From contig JAHBWH010000190.1 of assembly GCA_019637115.1 (NCBI GenBank), positions 1 to 16,589 of the forward strand: a stretch of 16,589 nt of DNA. Direction: 5' to 3'. The translations under genes and the position numbers were made by a program. A model generated the notes under the pieces. That model was not told the origin of the DNA. It did no database searches and saw only the letters and a list, made by a program, of their open reading frames with translations. Below are positions 1,951-15,782 of the stretch, in pieces (positions within the stretch are counted from its first letter, which is position 1; every line of letters begins with the position of its first letter). This stretch comes from Myxococcales bacterium (GTDB lineage: Bacteria > Myxococcota_A > Polyangia > Polyangiales > Houyiibacteriaceae).

Positions 1951-2655
1951 ATGGAGGAGCTCCTCGCGATCGCGTTCGCGTTCCCGACCGTCGTCTACAC
2001 CGCGTTGGTGCTCGTCTCCCTCGTCTATTGGCTCGTGGGCATCGTCGGGCTCGTCGACATGGATCTCGGCGCCGACGGCGCGGTGGAGGCCGCCGCTGGC
2101 AAGGTCGACGGCGCGCTCGACGCCGCCGAGGTCGACGGCGCCGTCGACGCGAGCGAGGCCACCGACGGGATCTTCTCCTCGCTCCACTCCCTGCTCAGCG
2201 CGCTCCGACTGCGTCACGCTCCGCTGACCATCACCGCCAGCGTCCTCTTCCTCTTCGCCTGGGTCTTCTCCTACCTCGGCGCCCGCTACCTCGCGCCAGT
2301 GGTCCCCGGCCCCGAGCTCGTCGGCCAGCTCGCGGTCTTCCTCGGGGCCCTGGTGCCCGCGGTGCCACTGACCTCGCTGCTCACGCGACCGCTCGGGCCG
2401 CTCTTCCAGCGCAACCCAGGGCGGGGCAAGCGCGACCTCCTCGGCCACACCGGCCGCGTGCGCATCTCCGCCGCCGTCGGCGAGCGCGCGCAGATCCGCG
2501 TCCGCATCGGCGGTGACGACCTCCTCCTCCGCGCGCGCGCCGACGCCGAGCTGCCCACCGGCGCCGAGGTGCTGCTGGTCGACTACGACGAAGCGAACGA
2601 CACCTTCATCGCCGAGCCAATGTCGGCCGTGATGAACGACGAGTCGTCGCGCTGA
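1951..2655 (+). CDS. YqiJ/NfeD-like inner-membrane protein with C-terminal OB-fold beta-barrel (flotillin partner)
   Basis: About 235 aa. It has N-terminal hydrophobic helices (FAFPTVVYTALVLVSLVYWLVGIVGLV; ITASVLFLFAWVFSYLGARYL; LAVFLGALVPAVPLTSLL), an acidic DxD-rich loop, and a C-terminal beta-rich segment GHTGRVRISAAVGERAQIRVRIGGDDLLLRARADAELPTGAEVLLVDYD typical of short NfeD/YqiJ (DUF1449-type) proteins. It lies immediately upstream of, and on the same strand as, a flotillin gene, as in yqiJK and yuaF-floT. The start is set at the ATG at 1951; a GTG at 1903 is also possible. Confidence 0.6.
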   Translation: MEELLAIAFAFPTVVYTALVLVSLVYWLVGIVGLVDMDLGADGAVEAAAGKVDGALDAAEVDGAVDASEATDGIFSSLHSLLSALRLRHAPLTITASVLFLFAWVFSYLGARYLAPVVPGPELVGQLAVFLGALVPAVPLTSLLTRPLGPLFQRNPGRGKRDLLGHTGRVRISAAVGERAQIRVRIGGDDLLLRARADAELPTGAEVLLVDYDEANDTFIAEPMSAVMNDESSR

Positions 2656-2676
2656 GCCGCAGACCGAGCGGCGCCG

Positions 2677-2703
2677 AGAATCGGATCGCTCGGAACCGAT
2701 TCT
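2677..2703 (+). promoter_or_regulatory. 8-bp stem hairpin AGAATCGG-N11-CCGATTCT between the YqiJ-like and flotillin genes
   Basis: Perfect inverted repeat 22 nt downstream of the stop at 2655 and inside the 199-bp intergenic gap of the putative operon. A second inverted repeat GCTCGTG-gatga-CACGAGC lies at 2772-2790. Confidence 0.3.
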
Positions 2704-2854
2704 GCATTGCCCGCGGGTGGGGGGTGCTTACCGAGAAGCGCGCTCCCGACGGGCGGAGCGAAGCCGGTGACGCTCGTGGATGACACGAGCATCGCCGCTC
2801 GTGTAGATCAGCCAACCGCGAGCGGCGCCCGCCCGTTTGCGATGAGGGGAGACC

Positions 2855-4981
2855 ATGGACTCGAACACGTACGTGATCCTGATCGCCATCGGCGCAGGGT
2901 CGATCATCTTCTTCGGCCTCATCGCGATGGTCGCGAAGTTCTACCGCAAGGTCGACCAAGGGCGCGCCCTCATCATCAACCCCCTGCGTGGCGATCCCTG
3001 GGTCACCTTCGGCGGCGGCGTGGTGTGGCCGATCATCTACCGCGGCGAGGTCATGGACATCTCCGTCAAGACGATCGAGATCGACCGCCGCGGCAAGGAC
3101 GGGCTCATCTGCAAGGACAACATCCGCGCGGACATCTCCGTGACCTTCTTCGTGAAGGTGAACAAGACACCGGAGGACGTGCTCAACGTCGCGCAGCTCA
3201 TCGGCTGCGCGCGAGCCTCCGACCAGCAGACGATCGAGAACCTCTTCAACGCGAAGTTCTCCGAGGCCCTCAAGACCGCCGGCAAGAAGTTCGATTTCGC
3301 CGCGCTCTACGAGGAGCGCGAGCAGTTCCGCAAGGAGATCGAGGCGGTCATCGGCCAGGACCTCAACGGCTTCACGCTCGAGGACACCGCCATCGACTAC
3401 CTCGAGCAGACGCCGGTCGAGCTGCTCGACCCACAGAACACACTCGACGCCGAGGGTATCCGCAAGATCACCGAGATCACCGCGGCGCAGAACGTGAAGA
3501 CCAACGAGCTCCGTCAGGACGAGCGCATGAAGGTCGGCGCGGAGAACCTGAAGGCCGACGAGGCCGTCTTCGAGTTCGAGAAGCGTCGCGCCGAGGCCGA
3601 GGCGAAGAAGCACAAAGAGATCGCCGAGGCGCAGGCGAAGGCGGAGAACGAGGCCATCCGCGTGCGCGATCTCGAGCAGCGCATGACGATGATCGAGCGG
3701 CAGAAGCACGAGGAGGCGGTCGCGGTCGCCGCGGAGGCCAAGGCGCGAGGCGTCGCCATCGCCGAGAAGAACCGTGAGCGCGAGATCGCCGTCGAGACGG
3801 AGCGCGTCGAGAAGGCGCGGGCGCTCGAGGCGATCGGCCGGGAGCGCGAGACGGAGCTCGGCCGCATCCAGAAGGACAAGGAGGTCGAGGTCCAGAAGAA
3901 GGAGATCGCCGAGGTCGTCCGGACCCGTATCGTCGTCGACAAGTCGGTCGCCGAGGAGGAGGAGCGGATCAAGGATCTGCGCCTCGTCGCGGACGCGAAG
4001 CGCACCAAGGAGGCCACGATCATCACCGCCGAGGCGCAGGCCCAGGAGCTGCTCATCAAGCAAGTGAAGGCCGCCGAGGCGCAGGAGACCTCGGCCAAGC
4101 TCGAGGCGAAGCAGCGGCTCACGCTCGCCGAAGCCGACCTCGAGGTCGCCGACAAGGCGGCGCGCGGGAAGATGCGTTTCGCCGAGGGTGTCCAGGCCGA
4201 GGCAGCCGCGCCGGGCCTCGCCGAGGCGAGGGTCCGCGAGGCCACCGCGCAGGCCATCGAGAAGGAAGGGCTCGCGAAGGTCCGCGTCGACGAGGCGCAG
4301 GCCAGCGCGGTTCAGAAGCTCGGTCTCGCCGAGGCGGAGGTCGTGCGCGAGAAGCTCAAGGCCGAGGCCACCGGCGAGGAAGAGAAGGGGCTCGCCCAGG
4401 CGCGCATCGAGGAGGCCATGGCCGCCGCGATCGAGCGCAAGGGGCTGGCGGAGGCCGCGGCGATCGAGAAGAAGCTCGTCGCCGAGGCGACCGGTCTGGC
4501 CGAGAAGGCGACGGCGATGAAGGCGCTCGACGGCGTGGGCCGCGAGCACGAAGAGTTCCGCATCCAGCTCGAGAAGGAGAAGGAGGTGGAGCTCGCCGAG
4601 GTCGAGGCGAAGAAGGACATCGCCCGCGCGCAGGCCGACGTGATGGCCAAGGCGATGGAGAGCGCGAAGATCAACATCGTCGGCGGCGACGGCGCCTTCT
4701 TCGATCGCTTCGTGAAGGCGGTCTCGCTCGGCAAGTCGGCGGACGGCATGATCGAGGAGAGCTCCACGCTCAAGGCGCTCCTCTCGGACTACCTCACGGG
4801 GAACGGCAGCCTCCCGCAGGACCTCAAGGAGGTGCTGAGCCGGCCTGCGCTCGACTCGACCGCGGTCCGCAACCTCACCATCTCGGCGGCCCTCTCGAAG
4901 TTCATGTCCGGCGCCGACGGCGTCACGCGGGAGAAGCTCCAGAAGCTGATCGACCGCGCCAAGGACATGGGCCTCGAGTGA
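2855..4981 (+). CDS. yqiK: flotillin-family SPFH/Band-7 protein (YqiK/FloT type), unusually long (708 aa)
   Basis: It has an N-terminal TM helix (YVILIAIGAGSIIFFGLIAMVAKFYRK) and an SPFH domain (RALIINPLRGDPWVTFGGGVVWPIIYRGEVMDISVKTIEIDRRGKDGLICKDNIRADISVTFFVKV) that aligns with YqiK-type flotillins. A long Glu/Ala/Lys-rich coiled-coil region and a C-terminal flotillin tail (NIVGGDGAFFDRFVKAVSLGKS) follow. There is an RBS GAGGGGAG upstream of the ATG at 2855. Confidence 0.85.
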   Translation: MDSNTYVILIAIGAGSIIFFGLIAMVAKFYRKVDQGRALIINPLRGDPWVTFGGGVVWPIIYRGEVMDISVKTIEIDRRGKDGLICKDNIRADISVTFFVKVNKTPEDVLNVAQLIGCARASDQQTIENLFNAKFSEALKTAGKKFDFAALYEEREQFRKEIEAVIGQDLNGFTLEDTAIDYLEQTPVELLDPQNTLDAEGIRKITEITAAQNVKTNELRQDERMKVGAENLKADEAVFEFEKRRAEAEAKKHKEIAEAQAKAENEAIRVRDLEQRMTMIERQKHEEAVAVAAEAKARGVAIAEKNREREIAVETERVEKARALEAIGRERETELGRIQKDKEVEVQKKEIAEVVRTRIVVDKSVAEEEERIKDLRLVADAKRTKEATIITAEAQAQELLIKQVKAAEAQETSAKLEAKQRLTLAEADLEVADKAARGKMRFAEGVQAEAAAPGLAEARVREATAQAIEKEGLAKVRVDEAQASAVQKLGLAEAEVVREKLKAEATGEEEKGLAQARIEEAMAAAIERKGLAEAAAIEKKLVAEATGLAEKATAMKALDGVGREHEEFRIQLEKEKEVELAEVEAKKDIARAQADVMAKAMESAKINIVGGDGAFFDRFVKAVSLGKSADGMIEESSTLKALLSDYLTGNGSLPQDLKEVLSRPALDSTAVRNLTISAALSKFMSGADGVTREKLQKLIDRAKDMGLE

Positions 4982-4987
4982 GGCGCG

Positions 4988-5022
4988 CGCCGCGCGTCGA
5001 CCTTCGGGCTCGACGCGCGGCG
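4988..5022 (+). terminator. GC-rich hairpin (13-bp stem, 9-nt loop CCTTCGGGC) directly after the flotillin stop codon
   Basis: CGCCGCGCGTCGA pairs with TCGACGCGCGGCG as a perfect inverted repeat 7 nt downstream of the TGA at 4979-4981. There is no U-tract, as is common in high-GC genomes. Confidence 0.5.
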
Positions 5023-5205
5023 TGACCATCCCCCCTTCGGGCCGCCCCCTTCGGGTCGACGCTCCGCCCGCTCGGACCTCGAGGTGCCCGAGAGCGCTCC
5101 CCGAGGGCGCGCACCACGACCTTCGCGAACCCATGCTGCGCCGAGGCCCTCCCTCGGCCCGGCGGTCCCGGCGACGCTCCGTCGCCCAGCAGAGGATGAG
5201 CTCGC

Positions 5206-8200
5206 ATGGCAGACGACAGCGAGACCGAGACCGCCCTCGAAGGCGGGAACTACGAGGTGGTCCGGGCGCGCCTGGTCGCGCAGGCGAAGGAGCTCGGCGC
5301 CCGCATCGATCGGCTCAACGAGCGGCGCCGCGAGGTCTTCGGCGGCACCGAGCTCGAGGTGGTCGCGAACGAGCGCGTGCGCACCGAGAACAACTGCGTC
5401 CCACGCGACATCGTGAACGTCGGGGGCCAGCTCCTCTTCGGCTACAACGTCTTCCTCGGGCTGAAGAAGGAGACGACGGTCGGCGACATCCTCTCGGTGC
5501 ACCGCTTCGCCGAGACCGCGGACGGCTACGATCTCGGCGAGGTCCCGGCCCTCGAGGTCGACTTCCTCGCCGACGAAGGCTTCCGCAAGGAGCTCACGAC
5601 GCTCTACTCGTACTTCAAGGAGGCGCGCCTGCTGCAGCTCCGGAAGACCGACACGCGCTTGCTCGCGGTCTTTCAGATCGGCGCCTCGACGAGCGAGATC
5701 CGCGTCTTCCGCTGGCGCATCGATCCGAGCGGGCGCGTCACCTTCATGGACGCCCGCGGCGAGGGCGACCACGTCTTCCCGAAGGCGTACGACTTCGAGT
5801 GGGTGCCGGTCACGCGCAACGATCAGGTCCAGGGCCGCTACCCGCACCTGTCGATCCTCGACGAGATCTTCGTCGAGACCACCGGCGGCGACCTGACGAT
5901 CAAGGTGGAGAACAACACGGAGACCGGCCGAGGCATCTACGCCGAGCCGGTCGACGACCCGAACCAGGCGCTCGACGACGCGCAGGTCCGTTACGCGAAG
6001 GTCGGCAGCCTCATCCTGCTCGAGATCCTCCCCTTCCGTGAGCAGAGGAAGCGCTACTTCGTCTACAACGGCCGGATCCAGCGCGTGACACGCATCGACG
6101 CGATCGGCACGGCCTGCCGGAGCCTCCCCGAGGACCAGGGCATCCTCTTCCCGGGCGGCTTCTACCTCGAGACGGGCGAGCAGAAGATCTTCGACGAGGA
6201 CGTCGCGGGGCTCGAGCTCAAGCGCGTGATCCAGTCACCGAACGGCGAGGACATGCTCTACGTCTTCCACCGTCGCGACGAGGGCCTCTACCAGCTCCTG
6301 CCCTACAACGTGATCCGCAAAGAGCTGCAGACGCCGATCCGCGCGCACGGCTTCAGCCTCTTCGACGACGGAAAGATGGTCGTCTTCCGCGCGACCGAAG
6401 AGCCGACGCGCGTGCACCCGATGCAGATCTGGCGGACGCCCTTCACGAGCGCCGAGTACGCCGCCAAGGCCCCCACGAACGGCTCTTTCCTCGCGAAGGT
6501 GGGCAACGCAGATCTCGTCCGCGGCGTGAGCGACTGCTTCACCATCCGCCGGCTGATCGAACGCGCCGAGCCGAGCCGCGCGAACTACGAGGTGCTGATC
6601 AAGACGATCACCCGCACCCTCGACGCCTATTACTGGCTCGGCCACGAGGAGGTCGGCGCGCTCGACGCGAGCCTCACGGAGCTGCGGCGCACGGCCGAGC
6701 TCATCGTCGACGAGTTCGAGAAGCTGCTCGCGCTGCGGCAGCGAGCGGCCGCCGAGCTCGACGTGGCGAAGGCGAAGCAGGCCGAGATCCTCGCGAACGT
6801 CCGCGCCGCCGAGCTGAGCTCGGTCGAGGGCTTCATGCGCGCCCTCACGCAGCTCCGCCACCAGCGCGGGGCGCTCATCACGCTGAAGGAGGTCCGCTAC
6901 GTCGATCTCGAAGCAGCGGACGCGCTCGAGGCGGAGATCGTCGAGCAGTTCGACCGGGTGAGCCGGGCGTGCGTGAGCTTCCTGCTCGGTGACGACGCCC
7001 TCGTCCCGATCCGCGGCCGGCTCGAGGCCATCCTCGCGCGCGTGGACGAGTGCCGCACCGTGGCCGAGATGGCGCCGCTCGGCGCCGAGCTCGACGAGAC
7101 GGGTGAGGGCCTCGACGTGATCAGCGAGATCGTCCAGGGCCTCGACGTCGACGACGCGACCGCGCGCACGCAGATCCTCGAGGGCATCAGCGAGGTCTAC
7201 GCGCTCCTCAACCGCGTGCGCGCCAGCGCGGTCGCGCGTCGGCGCGAGCTCGCGAGCCAAGAGGGGCGCGCGGAGTTTGGCGCGCAGTTCAAGTTGCTCG
7301 CCCAGGCCGTGAGCAGCGGGCTCGCGCTCGCCGAGACACCCGAGCGGTGCGACGAGCAGCTCTCGCGCCTGATGGTGCAGCTCGAGGAGCTCGAAGCGCG
7401 CTTCAGCGAGCTCGACGAGTTCACGGCCGACCTCGCGGTCAAGCGCGAGGAGATCTACGAGGCCTTCAGCACCAAGAAGCAGGCACTCCTCGACGCGCGG
7501 CAACGCCGCGCCGAGGGGCTGATGGACGCGGCGAGCCGCATCCTCGAGGGCGTCGGCCGGCGAGCGCGCACGTTCAAGGCGCCGGACGAGCTCCACGCCT
7601 ACTTCGCGTCGGACCCGATGGTCACCAAGCTGCGCCAGATCGGCGCGCAGCTCCGAGAGCTCGGCGACTCGGTGAAGTCCGACGAGGTCGACGCGCGCAT
7701 GAAGAGCGCGCGCCAGGACGCGCTCCGCGCGCTGCGCGATCAGGTGGACCTCTTCGAAGAAGGCGACCTCATCCGGCTCGGCAAACACCGCTTCAGCGTG
7801 AACACCCAGCCGCTCGAGCTGACGATGGTGCCCCGCGGCGATCGCATGGCGATTCACCTCACGGGCACCGACTTCTACGAGCTCGTCGACGATCCCGAGC
7901 TCGAGGCCACGCGGCCCTATTGGTCGCAGGAGCTCGTCTCCGAGACGCCGACGGTCTATCGGGCCGAGTACCTCGCGACGGGCATCCTCTTCGACGCCGA
8001 AGAGAACCGCGACGGCCTGACCATCGAGGCGCTCCACGAGGCGCAGCGCACCGAGGGCGGCCTCGCCGAGGTCGTGCGGCGCGTGGCGTCGACGCGCTAC
8101 GACGAGGGCTACGACCGAGGTGTCCACGACGCGGACGCGACGCTCATCCTCGAGAAGCTGCTCACCCTCCGCGACTCGGCGGGGCTCCTTCGCTACGCCG

Positions 8201-10671
8201 CGACGCCGCGCGCGCTCGCCTGCCTCTTCTGGGCGCACGCGCCGTCGCCGATGGACGTCGCGCGAGGCGCGTCCACCCTCGACTCGCGCCCGCGGGGCGC
8301 CCCCGACGACGGGATGAAGACGGATGCCGCGCGGGGCATCCGGATCGATCGCGACGCGCTCCACCGGCGCGCGCGGAGCCTCGGTCGCCTGCGCCACGCC
8401 TTCGGGCACACCGACGAGCTCGCGGCCTTCGGACAGGAGCTCGCGGCCCACATCCGCTCTTTCCACACCGCGCACGGCATCCCGTGCACCGAGGGCGAAG
8501 CGCGCCTCGCGGGGCGCTATCTCGTCGAGGAGCTGATGGTCGAGCGGCCCCGCTTCGCGACCAGCGCGGACGCCACGCAGCTCCGTGACGCGCTGCTCCG
8601 CCGCCTCGACCTCGACGGCACGCGCCGCGCGTTCGAGGAGGACCTCGAGGCGAGCGGCGGCGGCCTGCGCGCGCGCCTCGCGCTCGTCCACGCCTGGCTC
8701 GACGCCTTCGTGCGGCGCAGCGACCGCGACGCCGCGAGCCCGGTCACGAGCGCGGCTAGGGGCCCGGTCGCGAGCCACGGCGTCGCCCACCTCGCTCACG
8801 CGAGCTTCGAGGCCGCCGCGCTCCTGCTCACGCCCAGCCTCGACCGCGAGCCCTCCAGCGCGCTCACGCGCGCCGAGGTGGAGGGTCTGCTCGGCCAGCA
8901 CCCGCGCATTCAGGGTCGGACGATGTCGCTGCGCCTCGACGAGACGCTGGAGCGCCTCAGCGAGTTCGTCCACCACCGCGTGCCCGGCTACCGCAGCTAC
9001 CGTGAGGTGCGCCACGGCTTCCTGGAACGCCAGCGCGTCCGGCTGCGGCTCGACGAGTACAAGCCGCAGGTGATGAGCGCCTTCGTGCGCAACCGGCTCA
9101 TCAACGAGGTCTACCTGCCGATCATCGGAGACAACCTCGCCAAGCAGCTCGGCGCGGCGGGGGCGGGCCGGCGGACGGATCTCATGGGCCTCCTCCTGCT
9201 CGTCTCACCGCCCGGCTACGGCAAGACGACGCTGATGGAGTACGTGGCCAACCGACTCGGGATGGTCTTCATGAAGGTGAACGGCCCGAGCCTCGGGCAC
9301 TCGGTCACCTCGCTCGACCCGGAGGAGGCGCCCAACGCCACGGCGCGGCAGGAGGTGGAGAAGATCAACCTCGCCTTCGAGATGGCGCAGAACGTGATGC
9401 TCTACCTCGACGACATCCAGCACACGCACCCGGAGCTCCTGCAAAAGTTCATCTCGCTCTGCGACGGCACGCGGCGGGTCGAGGGCGTCTGGAAGGGGCG
9501 CACGCGCACCTACGATCTGCGCGGCAAGAAGTTCTGCGTCGTGATGGCGGGCAACCCGTACACGGAGAGCGGCGAGAAGTTCCAGATCCCCGACATGCTC
9601 GCGAACCGCGCCGACACGTACAACCTCGGCGACATCCTCGAAGGGCGCGAGGAGGTCTTCGCGCTCAGCTACATCGAGAACGCGCTCACCTCGAGCCCCG
9701 CGCTCGCGCCGCTCGCGACGCGCGACCAAGGCGACGTCTACAAGGTCGTGCGCATGGCCAAGGGCGAAGAGGTGGCGACGAGCGAGCTCTCGTACGGCTA
9801 CGCCGCGGGCGAGCTCGAGGAGATGAAGACGGTCCTGCGCCACCTCTTCCGGGTGCAGGACGTGCTGCTGCGCGTGAACGCCGAGTACATCCGGAGCGCG
9901 TCGCAGGCCGACGCCTTTCGCACCGAGCCCCCCTTCAAGCTGCAGGGCAGCTACCGCAACATGAACAAGCTCGCCGAGAAGGTCGTCGCGGCGATGAACG
10001 ACGACGAGGTCGAGCGGCTCGTCGACGACCACTATCTCGGCGAGTCGCAGACGCTCACGACCGGCGCGGAGCAGAACCTGCTCAAGCTCGCGGACCTCCG
10101 CGGTCGACTCGCCCCCGAGCAGGCGGAGCGCTGGACGCAGATCAAGCGCGAGTTCGTCCGTCTACGCTCGCAGGGCGGCGGCGACGACGACCCGGTCACC
10201 CGGCTGACGGGGACGCTCTCGGGCCTGGGCCGCGAGCTCGAGTCGATCCGCGACACGATCCTCACGGCGGCCGAGCGCGCGGCGGCGGCGCGCGCCGCGA
10301 GCGAGCTCGCGGCCGAACGCAGCGCCGTCGACCGCGCGCGCGCGACCCACGACACGAACGGCGACGCCTTGCTCGCGGCGCTGGGCCCGAAGCTCGACCA
10401 GCTCGGCGAGGCCCTGGCGCGCCTCGCGAGCCCGAAGGTCGAGGTCAAGCTCGAGGCCCCCTCGCCGGGCCCCCTCACCAGCCGAGAGCTCGGGGCGACC
10501 GCCGATCAGCTCGCGGCGCAGGCAGAGCTCTTCGAGCGCACGCTCCTCCCCATGGTCCAGAGCACCACCCGGAACCTGGACGACACGAAGTCGCTGCACG
10601 ACCACATCATCCAGCTCCTCGACCTCGTGCGACGCATGGACACGAAGTTGCGAGAGACCTACGGCCTCTGA
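5206..10671 (+). CDS. giant (1821 aa) uncharacterised protein with a single C-terminal-proximal AAA+ ATPase module of the MoxR/AAA_5 (dynein-related) class
   Basis: This is an uninterrupted 5.47-kb ORF with high GC3. It starts at an ATG with AGAGGA 12 nt upstream. Walker A LLLVSPPGYGKTTLMEY is encoded at 9214-9231, Walker B NVMLYLDDIQH at about 9400-9414, and sensor-1 FCVVMAGNPY after it (LDDIxx...LxxLxD....R......FxxxxxxNP spacing as in AAA_5). The N-terminal 430 aa or so are beta-rich, the middle roughly 900 aa are alpha-helical and acidic, and the C-terminal 320 aa or so form a helical tail. Beyond the AAA+ module I recognise no homologue. Confidence 0.85.
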   Translation: MADDSETETALEGGNYEVVRARLVAQAKELGARIDRLNERRREVFGGTELEVVANERVRTENNCVPRDIVNVGGQLLFGYNVFLGLKKETTVGDILSVHRFAETADGYDLGEVPALEVDFLADEGFRKELTTLYSYFKEARLLQLRKTDTRLLAVFQIGASTSEIRVFRWRIDPSGRVTFMDARGEGDHVFPKAYDFEWVPVTRNDQVQGRYPHLSILDEIFVETTGGDLTIKVENNTETGRGIYAEPVDDPNQALDDAQVRYAKVGSLILLEILPFREQRKRYFVYNGRIQRVTRIDAIGTACRSLPEDQGILFPGGFYLETGEQKIFDEDVAGLELKRVIQSPNGEDMLYVFHRRDEGLYQLLPYNVIRKELQTPIRAHGFSLFDDGKMVVFRATEEPTRVHPMQIWRTPFTSAEYAAKAPTNGSFLAKVGNADLVRGVSDCFTIRRLIERAEPSRANYEVLIKTITRTLDAYYWLGHEEVGALDASLTELRRTAELIVDEFEKLLALRQRAAAELDVAKAKQAEILANVRAAELSSVEGFMRALTQLRHQRGALITLKEVRYVDLEAADALEAEIVEQFDRVSRACVSFLLGDDALVPIRGRLEAILARVDECRTVAEMAPLGAELDETGEGLDVISEIVQGLDVDDATARTQILEGISEVYALLNRVRASAVARRRELASQEGRAEFGAQFKLLAQAVSSGLALAETPERCDEQLSRLMVQLEELEARFSELDEFTADLAVKREEIYEAFSTKKQALLDARQRRAEGLMDAASRILEGVGRRARTFKAPDELHAYFASDPMVTKLRQIGAQLRELGDSVKSDEVDARMKSARQDALRALRDQVDLFEEGDLIRLGKHRFSVNTQPLELTMVPRGDRMAIHLTGTDFYELVDDPELEATRPYWSQELVSETPTVYRAEYLATGILFDAEENRDGLTIEALHEAQRTEGGLAEVVRRVASTRYDEGYDRGVHDADATLILEKLLTLRDSAGLLRYAATPRALACLFWAHAPSPMDVARGASTLDSRPRGAPDDGMKTDAARGIRIDRDALHRRARSLGRLRHAFGHTDELAAFGQELAAHIRSFHTAHGIPCTEGEARLAGRYLVEELMVERPRFATSADATQLRDALLRRLDLDGTRRAFEEDLEASGGGLRARLALVHAWLDAFVRRSDRDAASPVTSAARGPVASHGVAHLAHASFEAAALLLTPSLDREPSSALTRAEVEGLLGQHPRIQGRTMSLRLDETLERLSEFVHHRVPGYRSYREVRHGFLERQRVRLRLDEYKPQVMSAFVRNRLINEVYLPIIGDNLAKQLGAAGAGRRTDLMGLLLLVSPPGYGKTTLMEYVANRLGMVFMKVNGPSLGHSVTSLDPEEAPNATARQEVEKINLAFEMAQNVMLYLDDIQHTHPELLQKFISLCDGTRRVEGVWKGRTRTYDLRGKKFCVVMAGNPYTESGEKFQIPDMLANRADTYNLGDILEGREEVFALSYIENALTSSPALAPLATRDQGDVYKVVRMAKGEEVATSELSYGYAAGELEEMKTVLRHLFRVQDVLLRVNAEYIRSASQADAFRTEPPFKLQGSYRNMNKLAEKVVAAMNDDEVERLVDDHYLGESQTLTTGAEQNLLKLADLRGRLAPEQAERWTQIKREFVRLRSQGGGDDDPVTRLTGTLSGLGRELESIRDTILTAAERAAAARAASELAAERSAVDRARATHDTNGDALLAALGPKLDQLGEALARLASPKVEVKLEAPSPGPLTSRELGATADQLAAQAELFERTLLPMVQSTTRNLDDTKSLHDHIIQLLDLVRRMDTKLRETYGL

Positions 10672-11773: not shown

Positions 11774-11804
11774 GCGCGGAGCATAGCTCCGTGCAGAGCG
11801 CGGC

Positions 11805-12040
11805 GGGCTCGCACGCGAGAGCGGGCTCGCTCGCGAGCGCGGGCTCGCACGCGAGGCACACCGGGCTCGCACGCGAAGCGCAGCGGGCTGCACGCGAGGG
11901 CGGGCTCGCAAGCGAGCGCGGGCTCGCAAGCGAGCGCGGGCTCGCAAGCGAGCGCGGGCTCGCTCGCGACGTGCAGCGGGCTCGCAAGCGAGCGCGGGCT
12001 CGCGCGCGAAGCGCAGCGGGCTCGCACGCGACGTGCAGCC
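11805..12040. repeat. tandem array of about 12 imperfect palindromic units (18-bp GGGCTCGC-NN-GCGAGCGC and 22-bp variants ending GYGCAGC)
   Basis: The units are read directly from the sequence: gggctcgcacgcgagagc, gggctcgctcgcgagcgc, gggctcgcacgcgaggcacacc, gggctcgcacgcgaagcgcagc, gggctgcacgcgagggc, three identical gggctcgcaagcgagcgc, gggctcgctcgcgacgtgcagc, gggctcgcaagcgagcgc, gggctcgcgcgcgaagcgcagc, gggctcgcacgcgacgtgcagcc. Each unit carries a 5-6 bp inverted repeat (CTCGC/GCGAG) around a variable 2-bp centre. The array has no spacers and sits between divergent genes. Confidence 0.85.
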
Positions 12041-12306
12041 GATCGGCCGCGCGCGGGACGCGGATCCGCGTCGACGCGCACCGGACGAGCGACAACGCGC
12101 GTATGCGTCGGGGAATGCGCGCTCGAGCGGCGCGCGACCCGCCGCGGGCACGCGCCGTGCTTCACGCGGGGCGTGCCGTGGGGGGCGCGGAGGCGTGCCG
12201 CCACGGCGAGCGTAGGGCCACGTGGTGGCTCTGGGTGTGGTGGCGTCGTGTCGCGGGCCGCGAGCGGCGGCCACACGCCCTCATCTCGGCGGAGGAAGAA
12301 GAGAGT

Positions 12307-15352: not shown

Positions 15353-15607
15353 TCACGCCCCGAGGCGCGTCGCCAACGCGAGGTAGGCGTCGCCCGCGGC
15401 CTCTCGGCTCATGCCCTTCTTCGCGGCCCACGCATCCCATTTGGCGCGACCGCGCACGTCGAGCATGCCCGGTCGGCTACCCGTCACGTCGCCGACCGTC
15501 GCTTGTTTGTAGAGCGCGTAGAGGGCGAGCATGTCGGAGGTCCCGGGTGTGCTCGGCAAGGAGTTCACGCGCTGGACCGCCGCTTCGAGCTCTTCTCGCG
15601 TCGCCAT
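15353..15607 (-). CDS. acyl-CoA-binding protein (ACBP)
   Basis: This is an 84-aa protein with the hallmark ACBP motifs LALYALYKQATVGD and KWDAWAAKKGMSREAA (the KWDAW box). The ATG is at 15607; the ORF-track start at 15610 is a GTG one codon upstream. Confidence 0.85.
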   Translation of the reverse strand: MATREELEAAVQRVNSLPSTPGTSDMLALYALYKQATVGDVTGSRPGMLDVRGRAKWDAWAAKKGMSREAAGDAYLALATRLGA

Positions 15608-15626
15608 CACGCGACGCTACCAGCCA

Positions 15627-15732
15627 TCGCGGAGGTTGGGCACGCCCGATCCGAGACGCGGCGCTCGCGCCGCTCGCCCTCGCGGAGGTTGGGCACGCCC
15701 GATCCGAGACGCGGCGCTCGCGCCGCTCGCCC
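15627..15732. repeat. perfect 53-bp tandem duplication (x2 plus an 11-bp partial third copy) in the acbp/wrbA divergent intergenic region
   Basis: TCGCGGAGGTTGGGCACGCCCGATCCGAGACGCGGCGCTCGCGCCGCTCGCCC occurs at 15627-15679 and identically at 15680-15732, followed by TCGCGGCAACC. Confidence 0.9.
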
Positions 15733-15782
15733 TCGCGGCAACCATCCCCCTCGCGTGGTTGGAACCCACCTGTTCCCCAGTT

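Follow-up and report, generated by a model that had tools for sequence, protein, structure and literature searches.

The locus described here raises a simple question: why do about a dozen short palindromic repeats stand head to tail between two divergently transcribed genes of a Myxococcales genome, and do they form a dedicated system or something more ordinary? The window, by which we mean the whole stretch of 16,589 nucleotides that was analysed, has a GC content of 70% and is a whole contig of a Myxococcales MAG whose closest relatives are Sandaracinus-like. A preliminary description had reported a tandem array of about 12 palindrome-bearing units, placed between the divergent genes of an E2-like acyltransferase and a secreted protein, and both statements hold, the first by Tandem Repeats Finder as well as by division of the sequence into its units (Table 1). 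The array shows no sign of a dedicated system, and it looks like neither a conserved regulatory device nor a novel type of element. We give about an even chance to the explanation that we prefer, which is that the array is a young, lineage-specific, non-coding palindromic minisatellite (VNTR).

Table 1. Features of the array region and of the second repeat region, in window coordinates.
Feature	Position	Strand	Basis or remark
Stand-alone E2-like acyltransferase gene, 281 aa	10928..11773	-	GC3, Pfam, ortholog N-terminus
Putative -10 hexamer TATGCT, 6 nt before the E2-like ATG	11780..11785	-	Sequence comparison with orthologs
Degenerate leading fragment GTGCAGAGCGCGGC	11791..11804	.	Read from the sequence; resembles the GTGCAGC/GCGCAGC tail of the 22-bp units
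Tandem array	11803-12031	.	Tandem Repeats Finder: period 18 x 11.9 copies, 80% matches
Three adjacent identical units (6-8), GGGCTCGCAAGCGAGCGC	11902..11955	.	Single unit in the SRR12908345 allele
Non-repetitive intergenic remainder	12041..12306	.	GGAGG Shine-Dalgarno at 12291-12295 for the plus-strand gene
ORFan secreted-protein gene, 498 aa	12307..13803	+	Strong coding GC3; signal-like N-terminus
Acyl-CoA-binding protein gene	15353-15610	-	Flanks the 53-bp repeat region
Flavodoxin/WrbA-like gene	ATG 15848	+	Flanks the 53-bp repeat region

For the same array, the only one called at the site, Tandem Repeats Finder also gives an alternative period of 40 with 5.9 copies. Splitting at each GGGCT results in 12 head-to-tail units at 11805-12040, with lengths in order of 18, 18, 22, 22, 17, 18, 18, 18, 22, 18, 22 and 22 bp, and every unit is built from GGGCTCGC followed by two variable nucleotides, GCGA(G) and a tail of 3-7 nt. 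The short units have a tail of 3 nt (AGC, CGC or GGC), and the long ones carry an extra 4 nt (GCAC, GCGC or GTGC) ahead of it, so that the 22-bp units end in GCACACC once and in GCGCAGC and GTGCAGC twice each. The two variants of the preliminary description are real as classes of 18 bp (n=6) and 22 bp (n=5), but they are mixed and not strictly interleaved as was stated there, and there is in addition one 17-bp unit, the fifth, in which a C is missing. Units 6, 7, 8 and 10 are identical, and the three of them that are adjacent are the newest expansion of the array. The degenerate fragment ahead of the first unit looks like the tail of one more unit.

All units contain inverted repeats of 5-6 bp (stem 5-6 bp, loop 2-4 nt), and inverted repeats can be read in the sequence both inside units and across them. 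Read as half-sites, GCTCGC and GCGAGC alternate along the array, 2 nt apart within a unit and 4 or 8 nt apart between neighbouring units. The motif GGGCTCGCNNGCGAG, with at most one mismatch, has 17 matches in the window, 16 of which lie inside the array, against an expectation of 0.66 from dinucleotide shuffles, and none of 200 shuffles reached 17. Head-to-tail copies without unique spacers, with a unit in the range of about 10-100 bp, are what defines the form of a minisatellite. That the array is not CRISPR, as had been stated already, follows from the contiguous units of 17-22 bp and the contig without cas domains, since CRISPR loci have repeats of 23-50 bp, unique spacers of similar size and, usually, cas genes.

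The array is non-coding. GC at third codon positions marks the minus-strand gene as far as about 11780 and the plus-strand gene from about 12200-12300 onward, and within the array GC is 0.74-0.82 at all three codon positions, with no codon-position signal. Long ORFs traverse the array on either strand, no reading frame is maintained past the units of 22 and 17 bp, the translations are low-complexity, and a search with the translated array among 5.8 billion proteins gave no match. The flat codon-position GC, the frame-breaking units and the lack of a protein match agree with the earlier statement that the array is not coding and of low complexity in every frame, and a VNTR is likewise expected to be non-coding or to have no conserved peptide repeat.

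On the E2 side, the flanking protein consists of the catalytic domain of 2-oxoacid dehydrogenase E2 only (PF00198, 2-oxoacid_dh, residues 4-133). Its start at ATG 11773 is backed by an N-terminus common to the orthologs (MSARRVPFPPERRLV in comparison with MTSRRVPFPPERKLV and similar), and its best homologs are 71% identical and include proteins of Sandaracinus sp. MAGs. The secreted protein on the other side is an ORFan, as a search of 5.8 billion proteins returned nothing but its own NCBI entry, KF901_28675 (hypothetical protein), and it has no match in Pfam or PADLOC. The NCBI start for this entry is 12379, which would drop the signal-like N-terminus. The non-repetitive remainder between the array and the ORFan gene presumably holds the promoter and 5' UTR of that gene. 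PADLOC gave no match for the genes neighbouring the array, and domain searches found no recognisable DNA-binding, regulator or Rep gene in the 16.6-kb contig. Farther away, the window encodes an 1821-aa protein at 5206-10671 (plus strand) with DUF3686 ("ATPase involved in DNA repair"), DUF7902 and an AAA domain, and divergent from it, at 2606-5134 (minus strand), an 842-aa protein without a Pfam match; neither of the two fits the PADLOC defence models.

The window was compared with Logan contigs of three unrelated SRA runs that contain this organism, L120 (SRR12908345), L121 (SRR12157868) and L154 (SRR29353002). L120 and L121 enter the array from the E2 side and match the window base for base through units 1-5/6, and L154 enters from the opposite side and matches units 10-12 base for base. 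All three break off inside the array, as a graph of 31-mers is expected to do, since within this region repeated 31-mers and branch points occur in units 6-8 only. The collapse on resequencing that the preliminary description had feared is thus contradicted at both array edges, which are exact in three independent assemblies, but the interior at 11920-11973 (units 7, 8 and most of 9) comes from the MAG assembly alone. A minor difference lies outside the array, in a run of G at about 12179-12184, which is G6 in the window and G5 in L154; the homopolymer is polymorphic, or one of the assemblies is in error.

One of these contigs tells that the array varies in length. At its array end, L120 passes from unit 5 through a single AA unit into GGGCTCGCTC. 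The final two 31-mers of this contig run from the tail of unit 5 across that AA unit into the start of the TC unit, and the window has neither of them, as its unit 5 and its TC unit are separated by three AA units. Logan was built with k = 31 and drops every k-mer that occurs a single time in the reads (PMC12424806). Since the junction 31-mers are absent from the window, and only 31-mers seen at least twice are kept, an allele with one AA unit exists. The reads of SRR12908345 give direct but thin support, one junction in one short-read graph and no spanning read, to an allele two units shorter than the window, and the copy number of the array varies. A comparison of strains for copy number had been proposed as a check in the preliminary description, and its suggestion of a recombination-prone variable spacer is directly supported by these read-backed 31-mers. 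A number of units that differs between strains, here seen at one junction of one short-read graph, is also a defining feature of a VNTR.

Since the GCTCGC and GCGAGC half-sites alternate, any unit should be able to pair with itself or with any other unit. We hypothesize that the tract misaligns or folds back in replication or repair, and that whole units would be gained and lost by slipped-strand mispairing or unequal recombination, which would account for the three identical adjacent units as well as for the shorter allele. The minisatellite reading is favoured because of these two observations, and also because there is no array at the orthologous loci, no dispersed copy in relatives and no partner gene in the contig, and because similar arrays or repeats occur in unrelated intergenic contexts. 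The folding of the array as a whole, which is far better than that of shuffled sequences whereas single units fold no better than these, fits pairing between units and is likewise in its favour. Against it speak the nearly invariant core of the unit, the suggestive position by the putative -35 and a unit-like site near a TetR gene in one relative, all of which are treated below, and also the single short-read junction from which the copy-number evidence comes. Mycobacterial MIRU-VNTR loci are intergenic head-to-tail units of about 40-100 bp that are lineage-specific and vary in number between strains, and some of them are situated in promoter regions and can shift expression. The array resembles them as a lineage-specific, intergenic row of head-to-tail units of tens of bp in variable number, but its units are only 17-22 bp, have an internal palindrome and no small ORFs, and are not known from many scattered loci. 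As a minisatellite, the array is a further case of a known phenomenon, the bacterial intergenic VNTR, with a palindromic unit.

We compared seven orthologous loci, L122, L125, L155, L157, L158, L159 and L160, with protein identities of 58-71%. The array is found in none of the seven. The gaps upstream of the E2-like gene are mostly short at these loci, 56-200 bp (56 bp in L122, 200 bp in L155), L159 being the exception with about 560 bp. The genes upstream differ from locus to locus: a GST-like protein, small unknown proteins, a TetR regulator, a 382-aa unknown protein by a sigma-70-like gene, and a methyltransferase. L155 (ENA ERZ926292 contig k127_68722, 7000-8000) is the locus where the E2-like gene is divergent from the TetR-family regulator, and its 200-bp intergenic region has an AT-rich stretch, TGTTTACGATGTAAAATAAACA, beside the TetR gene.

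The same loci inform on the promoter. A -10-like hexamer (TACGAT, TACGCT or TATCAT) is present 5-7 nt before the ATG in six of them (L122, L125, L155, L157, L158 and L159), all without a Shine-Dalgarno sequence. As the hexamer is common at the same place and no Shine-Dalgarno sequence accompanies it, the promoter is best read as leaderless; the E2-like gene of the window is probably transcribed as a leaderless mRNA, and the comparison suggests that the stand-alone E2-like family is expressed in this way across these Myxococcota. The -35 of the gene would then fall on the array's proximal edge, at about 11803-11809. The array begins 30 bp from the start codon of this probably leaderless gene, which would make its first unit abut the putative -35 and place the array upstream of the E2-like core promoter, not between -10 and -35. 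A scan for promoter and terminator consensus sequences found nothing in the array, and such a scan is uninformative at 70% GC.

These positions have consequences for the idea of phase variation, which the preliminary description had put forward for the two flanking genes. With the putative -10 and -35 at or below the proximal edge of the array, a change of copy number in the interior would leave the spacing of the promoter unaltered, and classical phase variation of the E2-like gene, in which the tract lies between -10 and -35 or in a reading frame, does not fit the promoter as we predict it. In Haemophilus influenzae a TA tract is located between the hifA and hifB promoters, a divergent pair, and lies between -10 and -35, and in Neisseria meningitidis a TAAA tract upstream of nadA is a promoter contingency repeat. 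The array is like these as a repeat tract of variable length in or beside a promoter, but their units are 1-4 bp and those of the array are 17-22 bp and would lie upstream of the -35, so that on/off switching by spacer length is not to be expected. The array may nevertheless modulate the flanking promoters. Its proximal unit could abut or even supply the -35 region of the E2-like gene, and the array as a whole would displace the rest of the intergenic region, including the divergent ORFan promoter, by about 230 bp. Any effect on expression would most likely be indirect, through an altered upstream promoter context and an altered distance from promoter to promoter, for which neither a dedicated binding protein nor an RNA would be needed.

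The main rival to the minisatellite is an array of binding sites, and it is kept alive by the fact that the units are not conserved uniformly. The unit, or its core, would be the site of a sequence-specific DNA-binding protein, which would cover the tract cooperatively and regulate one of the divergent promoters or both, and the array might have originated by amplification of a single ancestral promoter-proximal operator; we hold this to be rather unlikely. The 12 columns of the core (GGGCTCGC + GCGA) amount to 61% of the mutational target, yet of the minimal events, which number at least 12, they received only 1 (P = 2.4e-4), and the differences between units cluster in the tail and in the two central nucleotides. 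Such a low variation points to constraint or biased amplification and not to free drift. The inverted repeats of 5-6 bp within units and the position of the array against the putative -35 would suit a binding array too, but the conservation of the core is asymmetric, with the left GGG invariant and the right mirror position variable, which is ill-suited to a symmetric dimer, and the units follow one another at irregular intervals of 17, 18 and 22 bp, most of which are out of phase with the helix. Binding arrays are known from plasmids, where ribbon-helix-helix proteins occupy arrays of short repeats in promoter and centromere regions (parC/ParR of plasmid R1, the omega heptads of pSM19035), and where iterons of 17-22 bp are directly repeated beside a rep gene and an AT-rich region or DnaA boxes. 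The array shares with them many contiguous short repeats of iteron-like length in a promoter region, with direct and inverted half-sites, but it has the irregular spacing and lacks an AT-rich unwinding region as well as any ParR, ParA, omega or Rep gene. As for plasmid iterons, only the length fits, as there is no Rep family among the ORFs of the contig, the GC content is 74-82% and there is no plasmid similarity. More generally, a nearby gene for a cognate protein would be expected of a binding array, and no recognisable DNA-binding protein is encoded in the contig. When a position weight matrix of the unit was run over -70..-1 of the seven orthologs, L155 alone had a good match, GCGCGCGCAAGCGAGCTC at -37 of the E2-like gene, with a score of 13.8 bits that ranks among the top 0.6% of windows. 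This site beside the divergent TetR gene is in favour of a binding array, but with seven tests it is marginal, the other six orthologs have no unit-like site, and an array is present at none of the loci. The iteron or multi-operator candidate of the preliminary description is thus strengthened by a core far less variable than centre and tail, and weakened by the asymmetry, the irregular spacing, the lack of a regulator or Rep gene and the lack of an array at orthologs. A bolder version, which we regard as improbable, unites it with the minisatellite: one promoter-proximal site would have been amplified to 12 and would now be a candidate platform, cooperative and tunable by copy number, for a DNA-binding protein that would co-regulate the E2-like and ORFan genes, with the invariant GGGCTCGC..GCGA core as the recognition element, and the -37 site of L155 may preserve its ancestral form. 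The unit was also considered as a general cis-element of the E2-like family and rejected on the six orthologs without a unit-like site, which leaves L155 as a weak lead.

It is distinctly improbable as well that the unit is a dispersed extragenic palindrome of the lineage, a REP-like or satellite family of which this locus would be the largest cluster. REP/BIME and tagged palindromes are short, GC-rich and extragenic, 14-40 nt long and sometimes clustered (PMC3733652; PMC12306157), REP families can form arrays, and a REP carries the tetranucleotide GTAG or CGTC as a tag at one end of the stem (PMC3733652). The array unit is likewise a short GC-rich extragenic palindrome and occurs clustered, and a related palindromic array, described below, is present in a second Myxococcota MAG, where its gene context differs. 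A stable stem-loop is also expected of a REP palindrome; the unit has a stem of 5-6 bp with a loop of 2-4 nt, and the folding energy of a single unit is no better than that of shuffled sequence. Unlike REP clusters, however, the units are all in one orientation and have no linkers, and instead of a GTAG or CGTC end tag they begin with GGGC and end with CGC, AGC or CAGC; units 9 and 12, when reverse-complemented, do contain CGTC, but internally and not at the end. No RAYT transposase is found in the 16.6-kb contig, and there is no further copy of the unit in it. When the unit was searched in 76.6 kb of DNA from relatives, there were no exact and 7 one-mismatch matches, a low rate within a few-fold of the shuffle expectation and not an enrichment, and no two-unit match of the array's kind was found in the metagenome or viral collections. 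The genus-specific REP or satellite family that had been proposed finds no support in these chance-level near matches, nor in the metagenome, viral and plasmid collections, which hold no comparable array. The folding of the array leads to another possibility, a transcribed structured leader or small RNA, either as the leader of the ORFan mRNA or in a divergent or antisense RNA, with hairpins that would affect RNA stability or termination. The entire array folds far better than shuffled sequences on both strands (plus strand, z = -6.4; minus strand, z = -4.9), and it is situated 275 bp upstream of the plus-strand ATG. A single unit, on the other hand, folds no better than shuffled sequence, so its hairpin has no special stability, and the array folds as a whole because the units pair with one another. 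The search in Rfam gave only microRNA matches at noise level for the array, no hairpin is followed by a T-tract, the terminator scan was negative within the array, which is also not conserved, and the E2-like gene appears to be leaderless, which would put the array upstream of its start site; a structured RNA is accordingly something that we consider very improbable. A G-quadruplex with hairpin loops was considered too, in view of the GGG that recurs every 17-22 nt. An assembly artefact or a part of a coding sequence, which the long ORFs on both strands and the interior units 7-9 of the MAG assembly could be taken to suggest, is hardly credible in view of the edges that are exact in three independent assemblies, the missing codon-position GC signal, the 17- and 22-bp units that break the frame and the lack of a match for the translated array among 5.8 billion proteins.

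The scan of reference genomes was permissive, with 20 specified bases, and the matches listed include chance single matches in high-GC genomes; the sole informative one among those listed is in a Kofleriaceae MAG (L019, DASWOO010000925.1). At 2813-2905 of that contig a 21-bp palindromic unit, GGGGCTCGCCCGCGAGGGCTC, is repeated 4.5 times with the same CTCGC-NN-GCGAG arms as the array of the window. It fills the entire 99-bp gap between two convergent genes, and arrays of this type are consequently not tied to promoters. A metagenome scan with a two-unit pattern gave 27 matches, none of which resembles the array of the window, and nearly all are coding-looking tandem repeats (with periods that are multiples of 3) or chance pairs. 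The viral and plasmid collections contained no match to the array, and we found no description of this repeat in the literature.

If the array is a minisatellite, it is a tidy example of mostly local importance, which would not surprise a specialist and does not make a long-standing question testable. It would mean that GC-rich Myxococcota genomes generate intergenic minisatellites that differ between close strains, and the tract could be used as a strain-typing marker for an uncultured lineage. Such repeats break short-read assemblies, as all three SRA contigs end in the array, and they can sit directly on promoters, and the spurious ORFs that run through the array are a caution to gene callers. 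The array would be more interesting only if its invariant core proves to be a protein-binding site with a copy number that tunes expression.

The array is not the only tandem repeat of its surroundings. A second one in the window, at 15623-15738, has a 53-bp unit repeated 2.2 times with 98% identity, and it lies in the 237-bp intergenic region of the contig's other divergent gene pair. In a Sandaracinus sp. MAG (L122, JACKEF010000020.1) the intergenic region at 7507-7730, downstream of the E2-like ortholog, is packed with repeats of 5 to 17 bp, among them a 14-bp unit repeated 4.3 times at 100% identity, TCGTT/CTTCG pentamers and GGCACG 5-6-mers. Together, these two cases indicate that intergenic tandem repeats are a clade-wide tendency.
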